NCBI GenBank assembly: GCA_038064735.1
Contig: JBBTSI010000003.1
Span: 21,154-85,153, forward strand
From: Patescibacteria group bacterium
Lineage (GTDB): Bacteria > Patescibacteriota > Minisyncoccia > Phycocordibacterales > WO2-35-19
DNA length: 64,000 nucleotides
Reading direction: 5' to 3'
Each line of letters begins with the position of its first letter. The first letter of the stretch is position 1. Below the pieces are notes generated by a model that saw nothing but the letters and a program-made list of their open reading frames with translations, was not told the origin of the DNA and did no database searches. Shown here piece after piece: positions 10,276 through 56,647 of the stretch. The translations under genes and the position numbers were made by a program.

Positions 10276-11544
10276 ATGAAAAATAAGGTGAAAATTAAAA
10301 AAACCCAGCCTTCGCATAAAGCTACGGCGGGCAAAGATAGGGTATTTTTGGACTATGCATCTGTGACGCCGGTTGATTTGGGTGTAGAAAAAGAAATGCA
10401 GAGGGTTCAAAAGCAATTTTGGGCAAATCCTTCATCCTTGCACAAGGAAGGGGAAGAGGCTAAAAATATTTTGGAAGAATCTAGGACAAAAATTGCCCGA
10501 ATTTTGCATTGCCGTAGTAGTGAAATATTTTTTACAAGCGGGGGTACCGAATCTTTAAATTTGGCTATTTTGGGTGTGGTCAAAAGAAGCCAAAGGGCGT
10601 CTTTACCGCATATAATAGTTTCAACAATAGAACATCCGGCTGTTTTGGAACCAATAAAAAATTTACTTAAAGAAAAAGTGATTGAAGTTTCTTTTATTAC
10701 ACCAAACGAGAAGGGAATAATTAGCCCAGAATCTGTCAAAAAAGAAATGAAAGAAAATACTGTTTTGGTCGTTGTTCAGCATGCTAATAATGAAATAGGA
10801 ACTATCCAACCAATAAGAGAAATTTCAAAAGCTATTAAAAATTTCAAAGAATCAGAAATGGCAAAATTGCAAAAAGCTGCGGATAAATCCCGCTTTTTGA
10901 ATTTTGCCATTTCTGATTCTCAGACTGCTCCATATCTGTTGGTAGATGCGTGTCAGAGTGTTTTGTATGAAGATGTTTCGTTAGAAAGACTCGGCGCTGA
11001 TATCTTAGTTTTGGATGGTATTAAAATGTATGGGCCAAGAGGTGTTGGCGTTTTAGCGGTAAAGCATGGCACCAAAATTTCTCCCATAACTTTTGGCGGG
11101 GGACAGGAGAATGGTTTCAGGCCGGGAACAGAAAATGTGATTGGAGTAGCTGGTTTCGCCAAAGCTTTGGAAATTTCTGTCAAAATGATGGAGAAAGAAT
11201 CAAAACGACTTTTGCAATTATGCGATTATGCTATTTCTAAAATTTTGGAAATACCAAATTCTTCTTTGAATGGCAATAAAGAAAATAGATTACCTAATAA
11301 TATTAATGTTTGTTTTTCCAATCAAGATTCGGAATTTTTGGTTATCAAATTGGATACTCTGGGTTTTGCTGTTTCGGCCGCTTCAGCTTGTCATACTTTG
11401 TCACTTGAAAACGGCTCTTATGTTATTGAGTCTATCGGCAAACCGGAATGTTCAGGTTCTTCTTTGCGTATCACTCTAGGTAGAGACACCAAAAAATCAG
11501 ATTTAGATAAATTTATAGTTGCTCTTAAAAAAATACTTTGTTAA
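10276..11544 (+). CDS. cysteine desulfurase (class V aminotransferase, IscS/NifS family) carrying an in-frame palindromic insertion
   Basis: FLDYASVTPVD, TSGGTESLNLAI, IEHPAVLEP and the active-site region SAASACHT; 25-aa insert KESEMAKLQKAADKSRFLNFAISDS encoded by the palindrome at 10849..10919. Confidence 0.85.
   Translation: MKNKVKIKKTQPSHKATAGKDRVFLDYASVTPVDLGVEKEMQRVQKQFWANPSSLHKEGEEAKNILEESRTKIARILHCRSSEIFFTSGGTESLNLAILGVVKRSQRASLPHIIVSTIEHPAVLEPIKNLLKEKVIEVSFITPNEKGIISPESVKKEMKENTVLVVVQHANNEIGTIQPIREISKAIKNFKESEMAKLQKAADKSRFLNFAISDSQTAPYLLVDACQSVLYEDVSLERLGADILVLDGIKMYGPRGVGVLAVKHGTKISPITFGGGQENGFRPGTENVIGVAGFAKALEISVKMMEKESKRLLQLCDYAISKILEIPNSSLNGNKENRLPNNINVCFSNQDSEFLVIKLDTLGFAVSAASACHTLSLENGSYVIESIGKPECSGSSLRITLGRDTKKSDLDKFIVALKKILC
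10849..10919. repeat. 71-nt perfect palindromic element (family 1) inserted in-frame in the cysteine desulfurase gene
   Basis: gaatcagaaatggcaaaattgcaaaaagc / 14-nt loop / gctttttgaattttgccatttctgattc; second copy at 47326..47396. Confidence 0.85.
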
Positions 11545-22279: not shown

Positions 22280-23179
22280 TCAAAATTTTTCAGTAATTTT
22301 TTTGATTTTTGTAATTTCTTTCGGATTAAACCAATTTATTTTTTTATCCCGTTTGAACCAAGTGTTTTGACGCTTAGCATACTGCAAAGTTTCAGTCTGC
22401 ATTCTCTGAAGCATCTCAATTTTTGAAATTTTGTTTTGTAAAAATAAAGAAACTATTTTATATTCCAAACCTATTTCTGCCATTCTTTTCCAAGATAAGC
22501 CTTTTTTGTGTAAATTTTGCACTTCTTTCAGAAGTCCTTGTTTGAACCATTTTTTGATTCTTTTATTTATTTTTTCTTTCAATTCTTCATTTTCAGTTTT
22601 AATTCCTATTTTCAAGACGTTATACGTCTTGTCCCGCGAAGCTTTAGCGAAGTGGGACGGTACCTTTCCTATTGCTTCACAAATCTCAATCGCCCTTACC
22701 AACCGTCTCGGATTTTTTGCATCAATATTTTTAGCTCTGTCAGGGTCTAGATCTCGCAAAATTTTAAAAAGTTCTTCGGTTGTTTTCTTTTCTAATTTTT
22801 CTCGCAGTTTAAGATTTGGTGGCACTTCTGGTATCTGTTTATCTCCAAGTACTGCATCGATATAAAATCCTGTCCCACCACAAATAACAGGCACTTTTTT
22901 ATCGTTTAAAATTTTTTGAATTTCTGTTTCAGCAAGTTTTTTAAAGTCAGAAGCTGAAAATCTTTTTTTGGGAGAAACCACATCAAGCAAATAATGCTTT
23001 ACTCCCAACATTTCTTTTTTAGTAATCTTACCTGTACCAATATTCAGCCCTTTATAAACTTGCCTTGAGTCAGCCGAAATCACCTCACCATTAATTTTTT
23101 TGGCGAGCTTAACCGCGATATCACTCTTGCCACTAGCCGTCGGCCCTAGTACTACTATGATTTTAGGTTTCTCTGACAT
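22280..23179 (-). CDS. miaA: tRNA dimethylallyltransferase
   Basis: IIVVLGPTASGKSD P-loop, ISADSRQVYKGLNIGTGK. Confidence 0.85.
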   Translation of the reverse strand: MSEKPKIIVVLGPTASGKSDIAVKLAKKINGEVISADSRQVYKGLNIGTGKITKKEMLGVKHYLLDVVSPKKRFSASDFKKLAETEIQKILNDKKVPVICGGTGFYIDAVLGDKQIPEVPPNLKLREKLEKKTTEELFKILRDLDPDRAKNIDAKNPRRLVRAIEICEAIGKVPSHFAKASRDKTYNVLKIGIKTENEELKEKINKRIKKWFKQGLLKEVQNLHKKGLSWKRMAEIGLEYKIVSLFLQNKISKIEMLQRMQTETLQYAKRQNTWFKRDKKINWFNPKEITKIKKITEKF

Positions 23180-32939: not shown

Positions 32940-33929
32940 ATGCCAAATTTTTGGGAGAAAATGAAAAAACCAATACTCTGTTTAGCTCCGATGGCTGATG
33001 TCACGGATAGCGCTTTTCGTTATGTTATTGCTAAAAATTCGAAGATTCCTTTTGTTACTTACACTGAATTTGTTTCAGCTGATGGACTTGTGCTTGCGCC
33101 GGAAAAGGGGAAAAAGAAACTTTTGAAAGATTTGGAATTCAATGATATTGAAAGGCCCATTGTAGCTCAACTTTTTTCTAGCGGGCCGGAAATGATGGAA
33201 AAGGCGGCACAGCTTGTGCTAGAGCTTGGTTTTGATGGATTAGATATCAATATGGGTTGTCCGGATAAAAGTATTGAAAAGCAGGGTGCTGGGGCGGCGC
33301 TGATGAAAAACCCAAAATTGGCTCGTGAGATAATCGTGGCTGCAAAACGAGGAGTGAAGGGAAAAATTACAGTCTCTGTTAAAACTAGAATTGGTTATAA
33401 TAAAGATGAATTGGAAACTTGGTTGCCAGAACTTTTGGCAGAAAATCCGGCAGCGATTATCATACATGCTCGCACTCGCAAAGAAATGTCTAAAGTGCCG
33501 GCAAGATGGGATAGAATCAAGAGAGCGGTTGAGATCAGAGATTTTCTAAATTCAAAAACTTTAATTATCGGTAATGGTGATGTGAAAGATATTGCTGATG
33601 CAGAAGAAAAATGTTTTGAGACGGGAGCAGACGGGGCGATGCTCGGTAGAGCGATTTTTGGTAACCCGTGGTTATTTGCAAATTATGAACCAACAAATGA
33701 AGAGCGATTAAAAGTTTTGCTGGAGCATATCAAAATTTTTGATGAAAAATTTAAGGGTATAAAAAGTTTTGCCATCATGAAAAAACATTTCAAAGAATAT
33801 TTGAAAACTCCTGAGCTCACCACTTCGCAAGAGCTTCGCGGTGCAAGTCGGGATTTAAGATTTAAACTTATGAGAACCGAGACTGCCAAAGAAGCGGAGG
33901 ATATGCTTATGGATTTTAATAGCAATTAA
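32940..33929 (+). CDS. dus: tRNA-dihydrouridine synthase
   Basis: LAPMADVTDSAFR, TIM-barrel Dus core, catalytic-Cys region NMGCPD. Confidence 0.85.
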   Translation: MPNFWEKMKKPILCLAPMADVTDSAFRYVIAKNSKIPFVTYTEFVSADGLVLAPEKGKKKLLKDLEFNDIERPIVAQLFSSGPEMMEKAAQLVLELGFDGLDINMGCPDKSIEKQGAGAALMKNPKLAREIIVAAKRGVKGKITVSVKTRIGYNKDELETWLPELLAENPAAIIIHARTRKEMSKVPARWDRIKRAVEIRDFLNSKTLIIGNGDVKDIADAEEKCFETGADGAMLGRAIFGNPWLFANYEPTNEERLKVLLEHIKIFDEKFKGIKSFAIMKKHFKEYLKTPELTTSQELRGASRDLRFKLMRTETAKEAEDMLMDFNSN

Positions 33930-37900: not shown

Positions 37901-38554
37901 TTAATCAAAAGTGTCAAAGATGCCCTTTGACACTATCCTTTTGTAAAGTTTTGTGTTTTCATTTATAAAATTTTTTGTGTTGCCAAATATTTCAGTTAAG
38001 AATTGTTTATGAATTATTTTATTTTTTCTATTGCTTATAAAATCAACATAGCTACTCCATTTGTATTTTTCAGGTTTATCGATAAAACCATCTTTAATTG
38101 GATTCATATGTATATAAGAAGAAATCAGCATAAGTTGCGGATTTGTTTCGATTTGGACAGATTTAAATTGATCTTGGAAAACATGGCCAACTCTTTTGTA
38201 TTTAAGATTTATGTATTTTGCAAAACTGGTAAATACTCTGGACATAAGTTTTGAAATTGATTCATCACCGCACTGCTCTATCAATAGGTGAATATGGTTT
38301 GGCATTAAACAAAAAGCATGAAGTTTAAAATTTTCTGGTTTTAAACTAGTGATCCTTATCCTTGATTTAGGGGATTTGGTTATTTCGCATTCATTCAAAT
38401 CTTTAATATCAAATCCAAGACCTAATCCTAATCTAAAAAGAAAAGTTCTGTAATCTTGTTCATCTCTGAATATTATTTCTTTATTATCACCACGATTATA
38501 GATGTGGTGAATAGAATCTTTGGTGAAATTTTTATAATCTCTATTTCTTCCCAT
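37901..38554 (-). CDS. Y1 HUH transposase, IS200/RAYT-like
   Basis: HUH motif CLMPNHIHLLIE and catalytic-Tyr region SSYIHMNPIKDG; start at ATG 38554 (MGRNRD) with TGTGGTATAAT 7 nt upstream. Confidence 0.7.
   Translation of the reverse strand: MGRNRDYKNFTKDSIHHIYNRGDNKEIIFRDEQDYRTFLFRLGLGLGFDIKDLNECEITKSPKSRIRITSLKPENFKLHAFCLMPNHIHLLIEQCGDESISKLMSRVFTSFAKYINLKYKRVGHVFQDQFKSVQIETNPQLMLISSYIHMNPIKDGFIDKPEKYKWSSYVDFISNRKNKIIHKQFLTEIFGNTKNFINENTKLYKRIVSKGIFDTFD
37911..37933. repeat. 23-nt perfect palindrome GTGTCAAAGATGCCCTTTGACAC (REP-like), copy a
   Basis: Within the 3' codons of the transposase gene and 35 nt upstream of the hydrogenase small-subunit ATG. Confidence 0.8.
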
Positions 38555-38577
38555 ATTAAAATTATACCACAAGTAAA

Positions 38578-38600
38578 ATGTCAAAGGGCATCTTTGACAT
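38578..38600. repeat. 23-nt perfect palindrome ATGTCAAAGGGCATCTTTGACAT (REP-like), copy b, centre inverted
   Basis: Between the hypothetical gene stop and the transposase start. Confidence 0.8.
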
Positions 38601-39634: not shown

Positions 39635-39672
39635 AAATATATATTAACACAAGTATTCCATTATCTTAACAA

Positions 39673-39695
39673 ATGTCAAAGATGCCCTTTGACAT
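39673..39695. repeat. 23-nt perfect palindrome ATGTCAAAGATGCCCTTTGACAT (REP-like), copy c
   Basis: 38 nt upstream of the 38612..39634 gene start. Confidence 0.8.
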
Positions 39696-39746: not shown

Positions 39747-41219
39747 ATGTCGGAGAATTTAAATAATGAAATATTTACCATAGGCATCGGTGGGGCGGCT
39801 GGAGAGGGTGTCAAATATGTAGGCAATAACATCGGATTACTTTTACGTGATTTGGGTTTTCAAATTTATCTATCATTGGATTATCCATCACTCATTCGGG
39901 GTGGGCACAATTTCGTCAGATTGAGTGCTAGTGTGGATAAGATTTGGAATGATCACGCCAAGTTGGATATTTTGATATGTTTAAATGAAAAAACTGCGGA
40001 AATTCATAAAAGTGAGCTCAAAGAAGGTGCATGGGTACTCGAGGGTTTAAATAATGAAGAAATTTTGGGTAAAGTCAGAGAATTTTTGAGTACCAAAGGA
40101 TTAGCCGACTTCGCTTCAGGCTCCGTCGCGCCGAAGGGTGAACTAATTGATGGTAATACCGCTTTTGCCAAAGGTTTGCAGATGGCAGGTTTGGATTTTT
40201 ATTTTGCTTATCCTATGACACCATCGACTTCTATTTTGCATTATCTCGCCAGCAAGCAAACTAAAGAAGGACTTAAGGTTATTCAGCCAGAAAATGAAAT
40301 CGCTGTCATCAATATGGCGCTCGGTAGTGTTTATACTGGCAAAAGAGTGGCAGTAGGGACGGCGACTGGCGGTTTTGCTTTGATGCAGGAAGCTTTTAGT
40401 TTCAGTGGTATGGCTGAACTTCCACTTGTGTTAGCTGTGGTGCAAAGGCAAGGGCCAGCGACTGGTGTACCGACGAGAAGTTCCCAATCAGATTTGCGTT
40501 TTGTGATCCATGCTGGTCATGGAGAATTTCCAAGAATTGTTTTAGCACCAGGAGATCCAGAGGAATGTTTTAAAGCAGGAATAGAAGCAATGGATTTAGC
40601 TTGGAAATTTAAATCACCAGTTATTGTTTTGCTTGATAAAGCTTTGTCGGAACACATAATGACTGTGGACATTGAAAGATTGACCCAGCTTTCGCTAAAA
40701 GCTACGGCGGGCGAAGAAAATGCAAATATAATTTTTCCTGGTACTCCAGAAAAGGTAGTAAAAGTTACTAGTTATGAACACGATGAAGAAGGTATCACTG
40801 TTGATAAACCCGAAGATGTTAAGACAGCGATGGATAGGAGGTTTGCTAAGGGAGAGAAGATCAAGGAAGAAATGAATAACAGAGAAACTATCAAAATATA
40901 TGGAGATACGTCAAGCAAAAATACAATTGTGTTTTTTGGTTCTAGCAAGAGTCCGATACTTGAAGCGGCGAAACTTTTAGAAAAAAATATTAAATTGGTT
41001 CAAATTTTGTGGCTTGAACCGTTTGATTCAGAGAAACTTAAGAAAGAATTTGAGGGAATGAATAAAATAATTTGTGTGGAGGCCAATCACAGTGGGCAAT
41101 TAGCAAGTTTAATCAGAGAGAGGACAGGTATTGAAGTTACTGATAAAATTTTGAGATATGATTCATTACCATTTGAACCGGAAGAACTCGCTCTGCAAAT
41201 TAATTCAATTTTAAAATAA
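39747..41219 (+). CDS. korA: 2-oxoacid:ferredoxin oxidoreductase, fused gamma+alpha subunit
   Basis: N-terminal gamma-like GGAAGEGVKYVGNNIG and a POR/KOR alpha core. Confidence 0.8.
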   Translation: MSENLNNEIFTIGIGGAAGEGVKYVGNNIGLLLRDLGFQIYLSLDYPSLIRGGHNFVRLSASVDKIWNDHAKLDILICLNEKTAEIHKSELKEGAWVLEGLNNEEILGKVREFLSTKGLADFASGSVAPKGELIDGNTAFAKGLQMAGLDFYFAYPMTPSTSILHYLASKQTKEGLKVIQPENEIAVINMALGSVYTGKRVAVGTATGGFALMQEAFSFSGMAELPLVLAVVQRQGPATGVPTRSSQSDLRFVIHAGHGEFPRIVLAPGDPEECFKAGIEAMDLAWKFKSPVIVLLDKALSEHIMTVDIERLTQLSLKATAGEENANIIFPGTPEKVVKVTSYEHDEEGITVDKPEDVKTAMDRRFAKGEKIKEEMNNRETIKIYGDTSSKNTIVFFGSSKSPILEAAKLLEKNIKLVQILWLEPFDSEKLKKEFEGMNKIICVEANHSGQLASLIRERTGIEVTDKILRYDSLPFEPEELALQINSILK

Positions 41220-42092: not shown

Positions 42093-44147
42093 ATGAATTT
42101 AGAAAATTTTTTTAATCCAAAATCAGTAGCGGTTATTGGTGCTTCATCTGACACTAAAAAAGTGGGTTTTGCTCTAATTTCAAATCTTTTGAAAAATAAT
42201 CCGCCAACTGATGGAAGAAAAATTTTCCCTGTTACTCTCTCAGAAAAAGAAATTTTAGGTATGGAGACTTTCTCTTCTATTTTAAATATTCCAGATCAGG
42301 TTGATTTGGCGATAATAGCTGTAAGAGCTGATATAGTACCCAATATTTTAGTCGAATGTAGTGAAAAACATGTTTCTAATGCAATAATAATTTCTTCTGG
42401 CTTTAAAGAAATGGGGATTAAAGGTAAAGAACTCGAAAACGAAATTTCAAAAATAGCTAAAGAAAAAAATATCACTCTTTTGGGACCAAACTGTCTCGGT
42501 GTTATCGATACGAAAAAAAATTTGAATGCTTCTTTCGGTGGTCGGCAACCGCTTCCAGGTAGTATTGCTTTCTTATCCCAATCCGGTGCGCTCGGTACTG
42601 CTCTTATAGATTGGTCTATAGATGAAGGTATCGGTTTTTCCAAAATCATAAGTTTGGGTAACGAAGCACAGCTTACCGAAATCGATTTTTTGGAATTTTT
42701 AGAAAATGATCCTGAAACTTCTGCAATTTTGATGTATTTGGAAAATATAAATGATGGACCGAAATTTTTGGAAACTGTAAAAAGAATTACCTTGAAGAAG
42801 CCTGTGGTTATAATAAAAGCAGGTATGGGTAATCATGGAAATTTGGCTGTCATGTCTCACACTGGAGCTTTGGCACCGCAACCTGCAGTGTTCATTTCTG
42901 CTTGTCGACAAGCGGGTGCTACTACTGTGTCATCAGTGCGGGGATTTTTTAATATTATTAAAATATTGTCTCAAATAGGATTTAAAAAAGATCCTATTCA
43001 ACATTTGATTATTTTGACAAATGGTGGTGGACCGTCTGTCGTTGCTGCTGATCTTATCGACCGTTCTCGTTCTCTATCTCTCGCAGTTTTTTCTGAAAAT
43101 ATTAAAGAGGAATTGCGCGCTACTTTACCTAAAATGGCTGCTATCGGGAATCCAGTTGATATTATAGGTGACGCTCTTGCAGACCGATATGACAAAGCCC
43201 TCGAAATTTTATGCAAAGCGGAAGATTGTGATGCAATCATGGTGATACTTACTCCTCAAATGATGACAGAAGCAGCAGAGACTGCGAAAGTACTTGCTAA
43301 GTATAAAGATAAAAAAATAATATTTCCGGTTTTTATAGGCGGAGAGGGGATACAAGCTGGACGCAATGAACTCATAAAATCTGGTTTGGTTCACTTTGTT
43401 TTCCCTAGAGATGTTATCGATAGTTTAGATTATTTGGCTCAAAGTTCTCCTAAACGCAAACCCAATTCCGGTCACCATAGCTTTGGACATCATGGTGAAC
43501 TTATGACTTCGGTAAGAAATGGAGAGATGATGGAATTTAAATCAACACTAGAATTACTTTCTCAATACAATATTTCTATTGAAGGCCGATTTTTAACTAG
43601 AAAAGAAGATTTAGGAAATGCTTTAAATTCACTCGGTAGCGGTCCTTATACAATGAAAGCGATTTCCAAAGAAGCGGTTCATAAAACCGAAACAGGAGCA
43701 GTTAAATTAAATATTTTAAGTGTAGATGAAGCCAACTGGATATGGGAAGATATGTGGACGAAAATTCCAAAAGTGGAGGGTATTATTGTTCAGAAAATGG
43801 AAAAAGGTAGGGAAATAATAATCGGTATGAAAAGAGACAACACTTTTGGTCCGACGATACTTTTTGGTTTGGGTGGGATTTTTGCCGAAGCAATAAAGGA
43901 TACAGTGCTACGTGTTGCCCCAATTGGAAAAATTGAGGCTCTAGAAATGATGCAAGAAATAAAGGGTATCAAAATTTTGCAAGGTCTGCGTGGCCAACCA
44001 CCAGTAAACTTTGAAATGCTGGCCGATATTCTCGTAAATCTCTCTAAACTTTCTCTTGATCATCCGGAAATAAAAGAAATTGACTTTAACCCTGTTATGG
44101 CTACTGAAAATTCCGCCATCATTGTGGATGTGAGGATAATGATTTGA
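42093..44147 (+). CDS. acetyl-CoA synthetase (ADP-forming), fused alpha-beta (NDP-forming acyl-CoA synthetase)
   Basis: CoA-binding N-terminus KSVAVIGAS, succinyl-CoA-synthetase-like flavodoxin domain, ATP-grasp C-terminal half. Confidence 0.8.
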   Translation: MNLENFFNPKSVAVIGASSDTKKVGFALISNLLKNNPPTDGRKIFPVTLSEKEILGMETFSSILNIPDQVDLAIIAVRADIVPNILVECSEKHVSNAIIISSGFKEMGIKGKELENEISKIAKEKNITLLGPNCLGVIDTKKNLNASFGGRQPLPGSIAFLSQSGALGTALIDWSIDEGIGFSKIISLGNEAQLTEIDFLEFLENDPETSAILMYLENINDGPKFLETVKRITLKKPVVIIKAGMGNHGNLAVMSHTGALAPQPAVFISACRQAGATTVSSVRGFFNIIKILSQIGFKKDPIQHLIILTNGGGPSVVAADLIDRSRSLSLAVFSENIKEELRATLPKMAAIGNPVDIIGDALADRYDKALEILCKAEDCDAIMVILTPQMMTEAAETAKVLAKYKDKKIIFPVFIGGEGIQAGRNELIKSGLVHFVFPRDVIDSLDYLAQSSPKRKPNSGHHSFGHHGELMTSVRNGEMMEFKSTLELLSQYNISIEGRFLTRKEDLGNALNSLGSGPYTMKAISKEAVHKTETGAVKLNILSVDEANWIWEDMWTKIPKVEGIIVQKMEKGREIIIGMKRDNTFGPTILFGLGGIFAEAIKDTVLRVAPIGKIEALEMMQEIKGIKILQGLRGQPPVNFEMLADILVNLSKLSLDHPEIKEIDFNPVMATENSAIIVDVRIMI

Positions 44148-45417
44148 GGTCGAAGTTGGGGTCACTAAGCTCTGATTCATGGCCGGAGACTTTAAAATTT
44201 GATTCTATAAGTTTATTTATGGTAGCCATATCTTTGGAACGGTTAATGAAAGTGGCGCCAATGATTTCATCTTTTTCATCAACGATAATGCGAGCGAAAG
44301 AATTTATTTCCGGAGAACCACGTTTAATTATTTTATATTCCGGTTTGACACGCACATCTCCAGACATGGCAATATTTAAACCAAAACCAATCGCAGTATA
44401 AAAAGAAACCATTTTGAATGGTTTGCGATTGCCGAGCATATTATTTGCTACAGTGCGGCCTTGCATTTGAGCGTTGACCCAGTTGCCGAGCTGGACTTTT
44501 TCACCAAGTATGAGGTCAGTGAATTCGGCGACGTCGCCAGCAGTATAAATATCTGGGATATTAGTCTCTAAATATTCATTGGCCAAAATACCTTTGTTGG
44601 TTTCTATACCAGCTTCTTTGATCCAATCTAGGTTGCAAATGAGTCCTATGCCGATGATTGCCAGCTGACAGTCTATTTTTGCTTGCCCCGCCGTAGCTTC
44701 ATGCGAAGGCTGGGTGCCTTTTACAATTACTCCTTCTATTCTTTCATTGCCCAAAATTTCAGAAACTTCTGCTTCGCGTAAAATTTTTACTCCCTCTTTC
44801 TCTAAAGCATTTTCAATCATTTTGGCGGACTCAATATCTAAAAGCGGATACCAAAAATATGGTTCGCGCATCACCATAGTCACTTCTAAACCTGCCAATT
44901 TCATCATCTCGCACATTTCAAAACCGACGAAACCAGAACCTACTGCGATAGCTTGTTTGGAAGTTTTGATATTTTCTATAAGTTCGTTGACTTGGCTTAG
45001 ATCGCGGACATAACAGATGCCTTTTTTATCTGCTCCAGTGATAGGCCACTGTCTAGCTTCTCCACCAGTGGCCAGAAGCAGTTTTTCATATTGCAAAATT
45101 TTGCCTGTCCCAACCGAAGCGTCGGGGCCGCCTGAAAGTGTGACGGACTTTGATTTTGTATCAAGTTTGGTTGCGAGTACTCCTTCAATAAAATCAATCT
45201 TATTTTCTGTGTACCACTCTTTTTGTCTAAGCCAAACACTATCAAAAGGAATTTTACCTAAAAAGAAATTGGGTTTGGAGAGCATAATACGCGAATAATA
45301 ACGCGGTTCGTCAGAGACGATAGCGATACTACCTTCTTTGTCAGTTTGACGCAAAGTTTCAGCTGTCGTAGTACCAGCTGCCCCTCCACCAATGATTAAA
45401 TATTTGTATGGTTGCAT
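44119..45417 (-). CDS. FAD-dependent pyridine nucleotide-disulfide oxidoreductase (ferredoxin/rubredoxin-NAD(P)+ reductase or NADH oxidase-like)
   Basis: IIGGGAAG FAD and AVGSGFVGFE NAD(P) dinucleotide-binding motifs. Confidence 0.7.
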   Translation of the reverse strand: MQPYKYLIIGGGAAGTTTAETLRQTDKEGSIAIVSDEPRYYSRIMLSKPNFFLGKIPFDSVWLRQKEWYTENKIDFIEGVLATKLDTKSKSVTLSGGPDASVGTGKILQYEKLLLATGGEARQWPITGADKKGICYVRDLSQVNELIENIKTSKQAIAVGSGFVGFEMCEMMKLAGLEVTMVMREPYFWYPLLDIESAKMIENALEKEGVKILREAEVSEILGNERIEGVIVKGTQPSHEATAGQAKIDCQLAIIGIGLICNLDWIKEAGIETNKGILANEYLETNIPDIYTAGDVAEFTDLILGEKVQLGNWVNAQMQGRTVANNMLGNRKPFKMVSFYTAIGFGLNIAMSGDVRVKPEYKIIKRGSPEINSFARIIVDEKDEIIGATFINRSKDMATINKLIESNFKVSGHESELSDPNFDLKSLSSHPQ

Positions 45418-45988: not shown

Positions 45989-46687
45989 TTATATACCAGG
46001 ACCAAAATATTTTTCACGATAGAAGCGGATGAGTTGTTCGACTTTGGGGACGAGGTCGGGGTGGCCGACGGCGACTTTGGTGCGTTTTTGGACATCGACT
46101 AAAGTGACAGCGCCTTCGAGGACGGCTTCTTCAATATCAGCTTCAGTGGTTTTGGTATCTGGGTCTAAAATTTGTTGACCATCGGTGACGATTCTTTTAA
46201 GCTGGCCGGTTTTTTTGAACCAATCATTGAGTGCGGCGCGGAGCGCTTTGTCGCCGAGGACCGAGCAATGGATTTTCCTATCTGGCAGACTGCCCAATCT
46301 TTTTATAATATCTTGCGGTCTGATTTGCAAAGCTTTGTCGATCTTCATACCACCCCCGCCCGAACGACTGTTCAGTCGGGCAGGTTTCTCGCCAATCATC
46401 ACAGAAAGCATCGAAGTGGTGGCGATAGCCGAAGCACAACCGAAAGTGCGCCATTTCATTTCTTTTATTCTATCCGTTTTCTTATCAATTTTAAGCCAAA
46501 TGCGCATCACATCTCCGCAAGCCGGTGAGCCGACGATACCCGAAGCATCATATTTGGCCTCTTTCGGATCTTCTAGAAGCAAGTTTCTGGGTTTGAAGAA
46601 GTGCTCTTTCACTTCTTTGGTGTAAACCCAAGAATTGCCAGTAAACTTATTAACCACGTCAGGTTTATTTTTTTTCATATAATTCAA
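45989..46687 (-). CDS. IscU/NifU-N-like Fe-S cluster scaffold with N- and C-terminal extensions
   Basis: Three scaffold cysteines: SPACGDV, RTFGCASAIA, HCSVLGD. Confidence 0.65.
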   Translation of the reverse strand: MNYMKKNKPDVVNKFTGNSWVYTKEVKEHFFKPRNLLLEDPKEAKYDASGIVGSPACGDVMRIWLKIDKKTDRIKEMKWRTFGCASAIATTSMLSVMIGEKPARLNSRSGGGGMKIDKALQIRPQDIIKRLGSLPDRKIHCSVLGDKALRAALNDWFKKTGQLKRIVTDGQQILDPDTKTTEADIEEAVLEGAVTLVDVQKRTKVAVGHPDLVPKVEQLIRFYREKYFGPGI

Positions 46688-47915
46688 AAGGGGAAATTTG
46701 TCTTAACCTCTTCACAACTTCCGGCAAATGCTTTAGCACATATTTAACATCTTCAGATGTGCTGTATTTACCCAAAGTGAAGCGCAGACTACCATGAATA
46801 TATTCGTATGGGTTGCCAAGTGCAGAAAGAATATAAGATGGCTCCAAACTTTGGGAATTGCAGGCACTACCGGTGGAGACCATTATACCAAGCTCGTCCA
46901 GATATAAAAGCAGAGCCTCGCCTTCCACATCCAAAATAGAAATATTGAGGAAATTTGGTAAGCGTTTGGCTGGGTGGCCATTCAAAATAACTTTGGGAAT
47001 AATTTTAAAAATACCTTTTTCTAAAGTGTCGCGAAGTTTTTTGATACGAGCGGTTTCTGTTTTTCTTTTTTTAGTGACTAACTCTAGTGCCTTGACGAAG
47101 CCAACAATGCCAGCGACATTTTCGGTACCACTACGCAATCTTTGCTGACCACCACCATAAATAATAGGGGAAATTTGGGTGCCCTTTTTCACATACAAAC
47201 CGCCGACACCTTTGGGTCCGTAAATTTTGTGAGAAGAAATAGTCATTAAATCTGCGCCAAGTTTCTCTACATCCAAATCCAAAAATTTTGCTGATTGGCT
47301 TGCGTCGGTATGAAGGTGGGGGAAAGAATCTGAAAAAGCAAAATTGCAAAAAGCTGCGGATAAATCCCGCTTTTTGAATTTTGCTTTTTCAGATTCTTTG
47401 AATTCCTTAATTATTTTCGAAATCTCTGCAATCGGTTGAATGGTGCCAGTCTCACTATCAGCCATAGTGATGGAAATTAAAATAGTTTTTGCATCCAATT
47501 CTTTTTTTAATACTTCCAAATCTACTAAGCCGTTTTTCAAAACCGGCAACCTTACAATTTTAAAATTATCCTTTTCTAAAGCATCGCAAGTTTTCAAAAC
47601 CGCTTTGTGTTCAATTTGGGTAGTTATGATTTTGCCCCCTTTTTCTTTATTAGCTTTGGCAACGCCAAGTATAGCCAGATTATCCGCTTCAGTAGCCGAA
47701 CCAGTAAATACAAATTCATCGGGTCGGCAATTTAAAATTTTGGCGATGGTTTTAGTTGATTTAGTGATAGCAAATTTAGATTTTTGGCCCAATCTATACA
47801 GACTCCCAGGATTACCAAAATCTTCCTTAAAATAAGGGAGCATCGCAGAGACGACCTGTTTGTCTACAGGAGTAGTCGCGGCATAATCAAAATACCTCTG
47901 CTTTTTCATGAGCAT
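46665..47915 (-). CDS. cysteine desulfurase (IscS/NifS family) carrying an in-frame palindromic insertion
   Basis: FDYAATTPVD, TGSATEADNLAI, SSHKIYGPKGVG (PLP Lys), STGSACNS (catalytic Cys); insert KESEKAKFKKRDLSAAFCNFAFSDS encoded by the palindrome at 47326..47396. Confidence 0.85.
   Translation of the reverse strand: MLMKKQRYFDYAATTPVDKQVVSAMLPYFKEDFGNPGSLYRLGQKSKFAITKSTKTIAKILNCRPDEFVFTGSATEADNLAILGVAKANKEKGGKIITTQIEHKAVLKTCDALEKDNFKIVRLPVLKNGLVDLEVLKKELDAKTILISITMADSETGTIQPIAEISKIIKEFKESEKAKFKKRDLSAAFCNFAFSDSFPHLHTDASQSAKFLDLDVEKLGADLMTISSHKIYGPKGVGGLYVKKGTQISPIIYGGGQQRLRSGTENVAGIVGFVKALELVTKKRKTETARIKKLRDTLEKGIFKIIPKVILNGHPAKRLPNFLNISILDVEGEALLLYLDELGIMVSTGSACNSQSLEPSYILSALGNPYEYIHGSLRFTLGKYSTSEDVKYVLKHLPEVVKRLRQISPFELYEKK
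47326..47396. repeat. 71-nt perfect palindromic element (family 1), second copy, in-frame in the second cysteine desulfurase
   Basis: Central 44 nt identical to the copy at 10849..10919; outer stem differs at 3 positions per arm, all compensatory. Confidence 0.85.
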
Positions 47916-48598: not shown

Positions 48599-48851
48599 AT
48601 AAAAATTATACCACACAACTTTGCTCCACTTGGTAGAGGATGTTATTGTATCCCGCCGTAGCTCTATAAGAGCGAAGGAGGAGAAATTGTTTTGAAAATT
48701 TTAAATAAAAAGCCACCGCTTGGTCGGTGGCATCGCAAATTGGTTATTGGGAGAAATGAATAAAAAAGAAAGGATATTTTTACATAATCAAGAACGGCTC
48801 AACGATATTTATCGTTGAGCCGTTCCACATGTTTACCAAATAATCACTAAG

Positions 48852-49158
48852 CTCCGCGGGTTGGATTCGAACCAACGACCAATCGCTTACATAGAATCTC
48901 CTATTACTAGAAGTATGGACTATATCATCCCCATGTCTTTTGATTTAGGGGCGAGGGGCTTCGAACGTGAAATAAACACGTCCTACTCCATAAAGGATAG
49001 TCTCTACACCTTCCCTGACTTTTGTCTGGGCTTGGCTCGGGATTGCCCGCTTTTTAAAGCTTGGGTTTCCCCGAATTCACCTCGTTTTTCATCCAAAATT
49101 TCTTTTGGAAGCTGCATTATAAATACAGGCGACTGCGCTACCGCTGCGCCACCGCGGA
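48852..49158 (-). tRNA. tRNA-Asn(GUU) interrupted by a 235-nt group I intron in the anticodon loop
   Basis: Exons: 5' UCCGCGGUGGCGCAGCGGUAGCGCAGUCGCCUGU (49158..49125), 3' UAAGCGAUUGGUCGUUGGUUCGAAUCCAACCCGCGGAG (48889..48852). Spliced anticodon loop CUGUUAA, U1-A72 and G73 as in E. coli tRNA-Asn. Confidence 0.7.
48890..49124 (-). mobile_element. group I intron, subgroup IC3-like (Azoarcus/Anabaena tRNA-intron type)
   Basis: P7 strands AGACUA / UAGUC; near-identical matches to the Azoarcus core: CGAGCCAAGC, GAAGGUGUAGAGACUA, GUGAAUUCGGGGAAACC. 5' splice site after U (U.G with IGS GCAG); last intron nt G. Confidence 0.75.
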
Positions 49159-49167
49159 GCTTAATGA

Positions 49168-55963: not shown

Positions 55964-56647
55964 ATGGACCAAAATAAAGAATTGCATCATGCGAGCGTTG
56001 TTATAGGAGATGATTGCCGTAGTTTTGTTTTGGAAATTTTGATCAATAGATTGAATTTTAATACAAAAGCCAATCCAGATTTTTTGCTTATAGAAAATCA
56101 AAGTTTTGGCATTGATGAAGTACGTAATCTCGAAAGATGGGCCATAGGTAAACCACTTGTCGGTGATGTCAAAGCTTCTTTAATAATAGTTAATTCCATC
56201 ACTTTTGAAGCTCAAAACGCTTTACTCAAAATTTTAGAAGAACCACCTTTGGGAACATATTTTTTTATAAATCTTCAAAGTCTGGGTGGATTACTTCCAA
56301 CTTTTCTTTCGAGAGTTAGAATTTTGTTTTTGAGGTCAGACCTTGAAAAAAAGTCCCAAAGGTCTGACCTCGGGGACGGCAATGCAAAAAAATTTTTACT
56401 TTCCCAAATTAAAGAAAAATTTTCTATGATACGTTCTCTTTCAAAAAAAGAAGACCCTACTTCGCTAAAGCTTCGAGGGGCAAGTAAAAATGAAATGAAA
56501 GAATTAATTAAAAATTTAGAGGAGATTGCTTACAAAAATAATTTTAAAGCTCAAGACTTAAAAAACATATTAATTGCTAAAACCTTCGCTTCTGTTAGGG
56601 GTTCTTCTCCCAAAATGCTTCTGGAGTGGCTTTCATGTGTGTTATAA
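55964..56647 (+). CDS. holB: DNA polymerase III delta-prime-like subunit (degenerate AAA+)
   Basis: AQNALLKILEEPP signature box; no intact Walker A. Confidence 0.6.
   Translation: MDQNKELHHASVVIGDDCRSFVLEILINRLNFNTKANPDFLLIENQSFGIDEVRNLERWAIGKPLVGDVKASLIIVNSITFEAQNALLKILEEPPLGTYFFINLQSLGGLLPTFLSRVRILFLRSDLEKKSQRSDLGDGNAKKFLLSQIKEKFSMIRSLSKKEDPTSLKLRGASKNEMKELIKNLEEIAYKNNFKAQDLKNILIAKTFASVRGSSPKMLLEWLSCVL

Follow-up and report, generated by a model that had tools for sequence, protein, structure and literature searches.

In a 64,000-nucleotide stretch of a Patescibacteria group bacterium genome (contig JBBTSI010000003.1, positions 21,154 to 85,153; hereafter the window), a short segment near the start of a cysteine desulfurase gene is probably a copy of a family of GC-rich, imperfect-hairpin repeats of about 30-33 nt, which act as non-autonomous insertion modules and resemble in function the repetitive extragenic palindromic (REP) sequences and the Rickettsia palindromic elements (RPE). 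We call the module of about 33 nt found in the desulfurase family 1, and a related module of about 30 nt family 2. An initial annotation had paired the desulfurase segment, which starts nine codons past the ATG, with a 33-nt segment on the opposite strand inside the gene of an FAD-dependent oxidoreductase; we found both in the window at 10303-10335(+) and 44683-44715(-), the end point of 10334 first given for the former being one base short for 33 nt. These two copies align without gaps at 31 of 34 nt (91%), and the degenerate 33-mer pattern had no match in 100 dinucleotide-preserving shuffles. A repeat finder revealed a third copy in a KorA-like gene (Table 1), in the same reading frame as the other two. 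Because the window has a G+C content of only 36-41%, the modules are conspicuous GC-rich islands; in total the 64 kb hold four family-1 and three family-2 copies.

Comparison with orthologues showed that the module is an insertion into pre-existing sequence, made at precise points and without target-site duplication. The window's FAD oxidoreductase, whose exact protein is recorded from Hainich groundwater assemblies and named there Patescibacteria, has 9-10 residues at a beta-turn, the module site, that PDB 3fg2 and 4h4t lack, and its roughly 60 closest homologues (57-80% identity) read K-D-G-T-K-I-D-C at this site with no insert. The orthologue that we label P0005 carries NQPSLEATAGQ at the module site, while P0004 has IQSSHEVMMSE at the same codons, encoded by a copy decayed by GC→AT substitution (CAGTCTTCGCATGAAGTTATGATGAGCGAAG). 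In a codon alignment the empty orthologues P0002 and P0003 show a 30-nt gap at the module, which can be read as a 33-nt block (CCAGCC…GGGGCAAGC) placed within a Thr codon together with loss of the neighbouring Asp codon; on this reading, too, there would be no target duplication. The KorA copy sits in a variable linker, with SEHxMT on one side and FPGTP on the other, and three KorA orthologues (L124, L125 and L127) are without it.

The window desulfurase is homologous to solved desulfurases from residue 24 onward only. Among 120 desulfurase homologues, of which 110 could be classified, 99 have no module and open with MKNKxKxR[VI]FLDYA, and nine carry the module, all at the identical codon, with peptides that range from intact TQPSRKATAGK to decayed TQPSPKAMASK, VQPSLKAMSGK and IQTALKATANK. 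At the DNA level the site is empty in P0125; near consensus in the window, L114 and P0150, with differences only at family-variable positions; decayed in P0127 (22 of 33 nt); and occupied in P0122 by a 30-nt family-2 module nested within a decayed family-1 copy. The module has been lost or is decaying by GC→AT substitution in other lineages. On a crude neighbour-joining tree of the desulfurases, filled sites appear in at least about six places among the 99 empty ones, a scatter that implies repeated insertion at a single favoured point or else repeated exact loss. Filled and empty sites differed by no target-site duplication beyond a 1-nt ambiguity, and no target motif was evident at the insertion sites, whose flanks in bacteria of the Candidate Phyla Radiation (CPR) are A-rich, as is the genomic background.

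These comparisons bear on how the shared segment arose, for which a mobile mini-element or a recombination footprint had been proposed. The first proposal is supported: the segment is absent from most orthologues, occurs at hundreds of dispersed loci across phyla, and is also found nested within other repeats and interrupting a transposase gene. The second, a tract swapped directly between the desulfurase and FAD oxidoreductase genes by recombination or gene conversion, draws on the presence of both genes in one 64-kb window and on their 31 of 34 common nucleotides, but the same module is also held by a third window gene and by unrelated genes elsewhere (UvrC, KsgA, RsmE, IleRS and others), is intergenic in distant phyla, and in copies 1 and 2 the similarity stops exactly at the module borders. 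Direct exchange is thus refuted by the distribution of the family, and we consider it highly improbable. The initial annotation had also noted that its proposal would fall if TQPSH.ATAG. were a conserved functional peptide of both protein families. That the three window copies and the majority of intragenic copies in other genomes use one frame would suit such a motif, but the orthologue alignments refute it: the peptide is missing from most orthologues of both proteins and from all solved homologues, the identity is one of nucleotides, synonymous positions included, other phyla have the same DNA between genes, and the residues are modelled as a disordered loop. We give this explanation practically no weight.

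Family-1 modules share a 5' arm CC(A)GCC, an interior TTCGC-NNN-AAGCTAC, a 3' arm GGC(NN)GG(G) and a tail (N)CA(A/G)G; the core can also be written TTCGC-N3-AAGCTACG with GC arms. The description of the segment as not an obvious palindrome was inaccurate, because it forms an imperfect hairpin, CCC-A-GCC ... GGC-GGG, with covarying arms. Copies retrieved with the 3' arm fixed have a 5' arm of CCCGCC (the perfect complement), CCAGCC, CCCTCC or similar C-rich sequence, and those retrieved with the 5' arm CCAGCC fixed have a 3' arm GGC-NN-GG in which NN is freely variable; the apical NNN of these metagenome copies is in most cases ATA or GTA. Since it is the apical NNN and the NN opposite the bulged A that vary, variation lies mainly at predicted-unpaired positions. 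Copies found by the core alone, with the arms unconstrained, have arms that differ yet are complementary (CCAGCC/GGCTGG, CCTCC/GGAGG, TCCGCC/GGCGGA, GTCCC/GGGAC, ATCCC/GGGAT and CACC/GGTG). Arms from the same copy pair over 3.54 bp against 2.62 bp for arms taken from different copies, and none of 5,000 permutations reached the observed value, a test somewhat inflated by shared descent of subfamilies. An alternative inner helix, AGCYTT/AARGCT, is possible and is perfect in window copy 3 and in TTCGCCAAGGCT variants.

The inserted unit is indicated to be the module of about 30-33 nt itself by its presence in coding DNA, in other repeats and within the loops of further copies. A contig from a soil or freshwater metagenome (L162, 1267-1298) has a 32-nt family-1 module within the catalytic HUH motif of a Y1 transposase gene, where it causes a frameshift and a stop; once the module is deleted, VIMGNHFHLLLET is restored, together with a PF01797 hit that exceeds the gathering score. 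The borders of this copy are clean, with no duplication save a single ambiguous T. The gene is broken because 32 is not a multiple of three, and the 3n length seen in copies within genes is probably due to survivorship and not an intrinsic property. In Lentisphaeria and Victivallaceae (for example L042, L051, L032 and L066) the motif is internal to a MITE-like repeat (a MITE being a miniature inverted-repeat transposable element) of about 230 nt, which has 15-nt terminal inverted repeats (GAGGYAATTTCAAAA) and such a high copy number that it breaks assemblies; some copies of this repeat contain one additional module of about 33 nt. In many soil contigs a 33-nt module, CCAGCC…GGCGGGTCGAGA, lies within the loop of another copy, between TTCGCCAA and GGCTACGGCGG.

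The family extends well beyond the window. The search patterns used to sample copies fix parts of the motif, and taxonomic labels are given as they stand in the records. A scan of species-representative genomes with TTCGCNNNAAGCTACGGCGGG gave at least 120 loci, as did a scan of metagenomes in which the 5' arm was kept as in the window while the 3' arm could vary (CCAGCNTTCGCNNNAAGCTACG; at least 120 loci). Among the matches listed, CPR lineages with the motif include Saccharibacteria, Gottesman-, Zambryski- and Campbellbacteria and Paceibacterota; Lentisphaeria and Victivallaceae have dozens of motif contigs per metagenome-assembled genome, with copies often at contig ends; and Verrucomicrobia, Pirellulales (Planctomycetes), Kiritimatiellota, Omnitrophica, Babeliales (Dependentiae) and Bdellovibrionales are also represented. 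The 33-mer is almost identical between CPR bacteria and Verrucomicrobia or Lentisphaeria. A few matches in GC-rich genomes (such as FAGSYGG in L011, L020 and L047) proved to be native, unrelated coding sequence and were excluded. Among 2.9 million viral contigs there was no strict match and one with a looser pattern, and none among 72,556 plasmids; the motif being essentially absent from both sets, we rejected phages and plasmids as vectors. Rfam 15 gave no match at the window copies at gathering thresholds and none in nine copy-bearing loci at E values up to 0.1, so a known structured-RNA family was likewise rejected, and inspection by eye only revealed no convincing resemblance to tRNA 5' ends, tmRNA, 23S rRNA segments, CRISPR repeats or small ribozymes. 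Literature searches with the motif sequence returned only unrelated primer matches, and keyword searches gave nothing specific on repeats of CPR bacteria or of the Planctomycetes-Verrucomicrobia-Chlamydiae (PVC) group; we found no description of the repeat in the literature searched.

Within genes, the copies follow a strong frame bias. On contigs whose G+C content does not exceed 45%, open reading frames (ORFs) of at least 140 codons contain 17 of the 44 copies, and 13 of these 17 share one sense frame, …PS[HL][KE]ATAG… (P = 1.2e-5 with p = 0.25, four frames being always open); with orthologous sites counted once the figure is 11 of 15 (P = 1.2e-4). Sense orientation holds for 14 of the 17, the antisense copies within genes being those of L003, L038 and L061. 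The favoured frame gives the most hydrophilic and least charged peptide, while the other open frames give peptides that are Arg-rich, or hydrophobic with Cys or Trp. Verified hosts elsewhere are UvrC, KsgA, RsmE, a FemAB-family protein, IleRS and an M24 peptidase, in which the module is placed between domains or at the N terminus; in the AT-rich, gene-dense genome of the window, the in-gene copies lie in loops, linkers or N-terminal extensions and are mostly read in the one sense frame whose small product (TQPSHKATAGK) is hydrophilic and has many Pro, Ser, Thr, Ala and Gly residues. In an AlphaFold2 model of the window FAD oxidoreductase (mean predicted local distance difference test score, pLDDT, 85.7), residues 237-243 lie between strands 229-234 and 245-249 and form a loop whose pLDDT is below 50; the model places the insert in a low-confidence surface loop. 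The three family-1 modules in window genes follow the gene strand (+,+,-), and GC skew is positive in all but two of sixteen 4-kb bins, an arrangement that fits selection at the level of protein or mRNA rather than a replication-strand rule, with n only 3. Selection against disruptive insertions has probably shaped the frame, the 3n length and the position alike.

In-gene insertion of REP-type sequences is already established: intragenic REPs are documented in the linkers and N termini of housekeeping genes, to which they add about 7-12 residues (PMC3733652), and those tagged with GTAG or CGTC occur in Opitutus terrae and others (Di Nocera et al. 2013, PMC3733652). Like the REP/REPIN systems with their REP-associated tyrosine transposases (RAYTs), the present family consists of short (20-40 nt in REPs, 30-33 nt here) imperfect palindromes with complementary, covarying arms, in many dispersed copies and several families per genome; some of its copies likewise lie in loops, linkers and N termini of housekeeping genes and add a similar number of residues (7-12), insertion leaves no target duplication, and the same genome has a conserved single-copy RAYT-like gene. 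Unlike in REPs, it is the interior or "loop" that is conserved and the arms that differ between copies, and one sequence is found across several phyla, both unusual features. The motif is not identical to published intragenic REPs, as the peptides in Additional file 3 of that study match no frame of it, and the same study classes RPE-4 and RPE-6 as CGTC REPs (PMC3733652).

Several other known systems offer partial parallels. RPEs, reportedly described by Ogata and co-workers in 2000, are palindromic selfish DNA inserted in-frame within essential genes of a small AT-rich genome and tolerated because they form surface segments. As with RPEs, our module enters housekeeping genes in-frame at permissive sites with a strong bias for one frame, but RPE-1 measures 100-150 bp and is confined to Rickettsia, whereas the present module has about 33 nt, an unrelated sequence and hosts in CPR, PVC, Dependentiae and other phyla. 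The family works like REP or RPE but lacks the REP hallmarks examined (terminal tag, flanking RAYT and inverted pairs) and the RPE consensus sequences and sizes. The GC clusters of yeast mitochondria are short GC-rich palindromes in a very AT-rich genome, occasionally coding (var1) and polymorphic for presence or absence; they resemble our modules in their scatter and occasional coding location and differ in belonging to an organellar genome and to other sequence families, with no sign of a related mechanism. MITEs such as Correia/NEMIS, ERIC and RUP have 50-500 bp, terminal inverted repeats that match those of an insertion sequence (IS), and target-site duplications. They share with the module a non-autonomous, multi-copy nature, possible co-transcription and occasional location within ORFs, whereas the module is far shorter and has neither IS terminal inverted repeats nor target-site duplication; in Lentisphaeria it is a passenger inside a true MITE-like repeat. 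DNA uptake sequences (USS/DUS) arise by substitution in existing sequence, at about one per kb, and are lineage-specific, whereas the module adds about 10-12 codons, occurs about once per 10-15 kb and is common to several phyla.

At two orthologous sites the module is much more conserved than the gene that contains it. Between the window and L114, 35 of 36 nt of the desulfurase module agree, while the gene as a whole is 71% identical and its third positions 49%; every other 12-codon window stays at or below 31 of 36. The FAD-oxidoreductase module of the window and P0005 agrees at 32 of 36 nt against 72% overall, a value equalled by only 4.8% of windows, with the differences at variable positions. 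This excess has three possible explanations: the module may be selected for a function as DNA or RNA, its many identical copies may undergo gene conversion, or it may have been re-inserted at a hot spot. The first would make the module a functional cis-acting signal under purifying selection, be it an mRNA structure or a DNA site for a conserved factor, with the peptide as a tolerated by-product. Conservation at orthologous sites far above that of the host gene, with synonymous sites near saturation, speaks for such a signal, as do the near-identity of the 33-mer between CPR bacteria and Verrucomicrobia or Lentisphaeria, the restriction of variation to predicted-unpaired positions while the arms covary, the sense orientation of 14 of 17 intragenic copies, and the presence in the window of three near-consensus copies with almost no intermediate decay products. 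A signal of this kind should not, however, be absent from most orthologues of every host gene examined, nor decay in several lineages that retain the gene; moreover, the host genes are functionally unrelated, some copies within genes are antisense (L003, L038 and L061), one inactivates its gene (the Y1 gene of L162), others are passengers within a MITE or nested in a copy of the module itself, there is no Rfam match, predicted stability is weak, and gene conversion or hot-spot re-insertion would yield the conservation equally well. Because these causes of excess conservation are not separable here, we keep the cis-acting signal as an unlikely explanation rather than discarding it.

Returning to the reading of the modules as mobile, non-autonomous insertions, a number of results weigh against it. 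The strong conservation of some copies and the near-identity of the 33-mer across phyla are explained no worse by a selected function or by gene conversion than by pure selfishness, and recent transposition, in the form of polymorphism between near-identical genomes, was not seen in a compared set that held no closely related genome pair. By folding energy, single DNA copies are not predicted to fold significantly better than shuffles (z from 0 to -1.9), so we dropped significant thermodynamic structure of single copies as a claim and used arm covariation as the evidence for a hairpin. The terminal GTAG or CGTC tag by which intragenic REPs were defined (PMC3733652) is absent: on the reverse strand, CCCGCC-GTAG-CTTTATGCGAAGGCTGGG, GTAG stands inside the element, with the outer arm on one side of it and the inner stem on the other, and there is no CGTC. 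Inverted pairs of the REPIN type or of bacterial interspersed mosaic elements (BIMEs) are also lacking, copies being single or tandem, with 16 of the 17 neighbouring pairs less than 400 nt apart in the same orientation and one convergent. No RAYT flanks the motif copies; a phmmer search with the window's Y1 protein found no intact Y1 gene in about 1.5 Mb around them, and neither this search nor the window's own RAYT-like gene, whose cognate hairpin differs, provided a mobilising enzyme. Finally, copy sampling was constrained by the search patterns, and the counts are lower bounds.

If the modules are mobile, they would move as folded single-stranded DNA hairpins, for which a hairpin-recognising enzyme of the HUH/Y1 (RAYT/IS200) type, or a similar one, would be the candidate mobiliser acting in trans. 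We propose such HUH-type chemistry only tentatively, because of the hairpin form, the precise borders without duplication and the insertions into hairpin loops. More speculatively, the repeats may represent a cross-phylum class of ultra-small hairpin modules (about 32-33 nt) with a conserved interior, and not just one more REP limited to a lineage; these would either insert and excise precisely through a broad-host-range hairpin-recognising enzyme or serve as a functional DNA or RNA signal within essential genes; were this so, their near-identity across phyla and their conservation above the synonymous level would imply sequence-specific recognition by a conserved factor.

The RAYT-like gene of the window (37901-38554, -) encodes a Y1 protein whose best match is NCBIfam NF047646, 'REP-associated tyrosine transposase' (68 bits, cut-off 80), with 42 bits to PF01797. 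It is 79-85% identical in genomes where the FAD oxidoreductase is 71-74% identical to that of the window, as is usual for a RAYT that has been domesticated and passes down vertically, and it is more conserved than the adjoining housekeeping genes. Homologues of the gene in L253 and L255, one of them non-syntenic, are flanked by the same TGTCAAAG-loop-CTTTGACA hairpins as the window gene (Table 1), and both genomes have further dispersed copies of this hairpin, some within POR-alpha and Dus genes. Since the gene is flanked by this different hairpin in three genomes, it has its own REP, which is not the motif studied here, and a separate REP-RAYT-like system is present in these Patescibacteria.

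Table 1. Hairpin modules of the window, with host genes and in-frame peptides
Feature	Position	Strand	Location	In-frame peptide	Sequence or remark
Family-1 copy 1	10303-10335	+	Cysteine desulfurase ORF 10276-11544, N-terminal extension	TQPSHKATAGK	ACCCAGCCTTCGCATAAAGCTACGGCGGGCAAA
Family-1 copy 2	44683-44715	-	FAD-dependent oxidoreductase ORF 44119-45417	TQPSHEATAGQ	ACCCAGCCTTCGCATGAAGCTACGGCGGGGCAA
Family-1 copy 3	40683-40717	+	2-oxoacid:ferredoxin oxidoreductase alpha-like (KorA-like) ORF 39747-41219	TQLSLKATAGE	Repeat finder
Diverged family-1 copy (weak assignment)	48640-48680	-	Apparently intergenic		CCTCCTTCGCTCTTATAGAGCTACGGCGGGA; longer loop
Family-2 module, about 30 nt	22626-22658	-	MiaA-like ORF 22280-23179	SHFAKASRDK	GTCCCACTTCGCTAAAGCTTCGCGGGACAAG; arms GTCCC/GGGAC
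Family-2 module	56454-56486	+	DNA polymerase III delta'-like (HolB-like) ORF 55964-56647	PTSLKLRGAS	CCCTACTTCGCTAAAGCTTCGAGGGGCAAG
Family-2-like module	33815-33850	+	tRNA-dihydrouridine synthase-like (Dus) ORF 32940-33929, near C-terminus	TTSQELRGAS	CACCACTTCGCAAGAGCTTCGCGGTGCAAG; arms CACC/GGTG
RAYT-like-gene hairpins	37909-37932, 38576-38599, 39671-39694				Inverted TGTCAAAG-ATGCC-CTTTGACA

The fourth family-1 copy of the window is assigned to the family weakly: it has one mismatch to AAGCTACGGCGGG, its nhmmer match is partial (E=5.3), and no ORF of at least 60 amino acids spans it. The family-2 modules have the core CTTCGC-TAAAGCT-TCG and, in the MiaA-like and Dus genes, complementary arms.

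CPR bacteria have some of the smallest and most streamlined genomes known. If our reading is correct, Patescibacteria join Rickettsia and a few REP-rich bacteria in having essential proteins "decorated" by selfish hairpin DNA. Such inserts inflate apparent protein divergence, yield spurious "CPR-specific" indels and break the assemblies of high-copy lineages. The same sequence of about 33 nt is common to phyla that otherwise exchange little, without carriage by the phage contigs or plasmids searched, and the repeat offers a tractable handle on how minimal elements move and on their possible co-option by hosts.

Other inserts were found in the same genes. A 75-nt palindromic element (27-nt arms, 19-nt spacer) lies at 10846-10920 in the desulfurase ORF 10276-11544 (+) and at 47323-47397 in a second desulfurase ORF (46665-47915, -); the two copies are 92% identical and sit in-frame at the same structural position (after ...ISKxIKxF) of these paralogous proteins, in opposite orientation relative to each gene, and the corresponding segment of about 28 residues is missing from PDB homologues. 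In the FAD oxidoreductase a second GC-rich hairpin insert (45100-45138, -; CCCGAC-GCTTCG-GTTGGG) encodes LSGGPDASVGTGK at another beta-turn; it is missing from PDB homologues and the orthologue consensus, and residues 99-103 have pLDDT <50. Short inserts at other loops (PARHASQGDAGGG, PARLTSESVVGGG and DPSNTSGQ) occur in the FAD-oxidoreductase orthologues P0004, P0051, P0056, P0032 and P0066. This suggests that several GC-rich mini-insert families decorate proteins across Paceibacteria. A palindromic in-frame insert in the HolB-like gene, GAGGTCAGACC...GGTCTGACCTC (56327-56380, +), encodes LRSDLEKKSQRSDLG; the L114 desulfurase orthologue has a similar insert, PRSDLELPRSQRSDLGL, where the window protein has only RSQRAS. 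A GC-rich stretch in KorA (40101-40142, +; LADFASGSVAPKGE) has a core-like TTCGCTTCAGGCTCCG and is probably either native or an insert fixed very long ago, because the L124 orthologue has GLVDFTSGSIA. Apart from these inserts, Rfam identified a group I catalytic intron at 48897-49134(-) (RF00028, 67 bits, E = 8e-15), and GC-rich tRNA-like fragments lie at about 49125-49164; together they probably represent an intron-containing tRNA gene that ARAGORN did not call.

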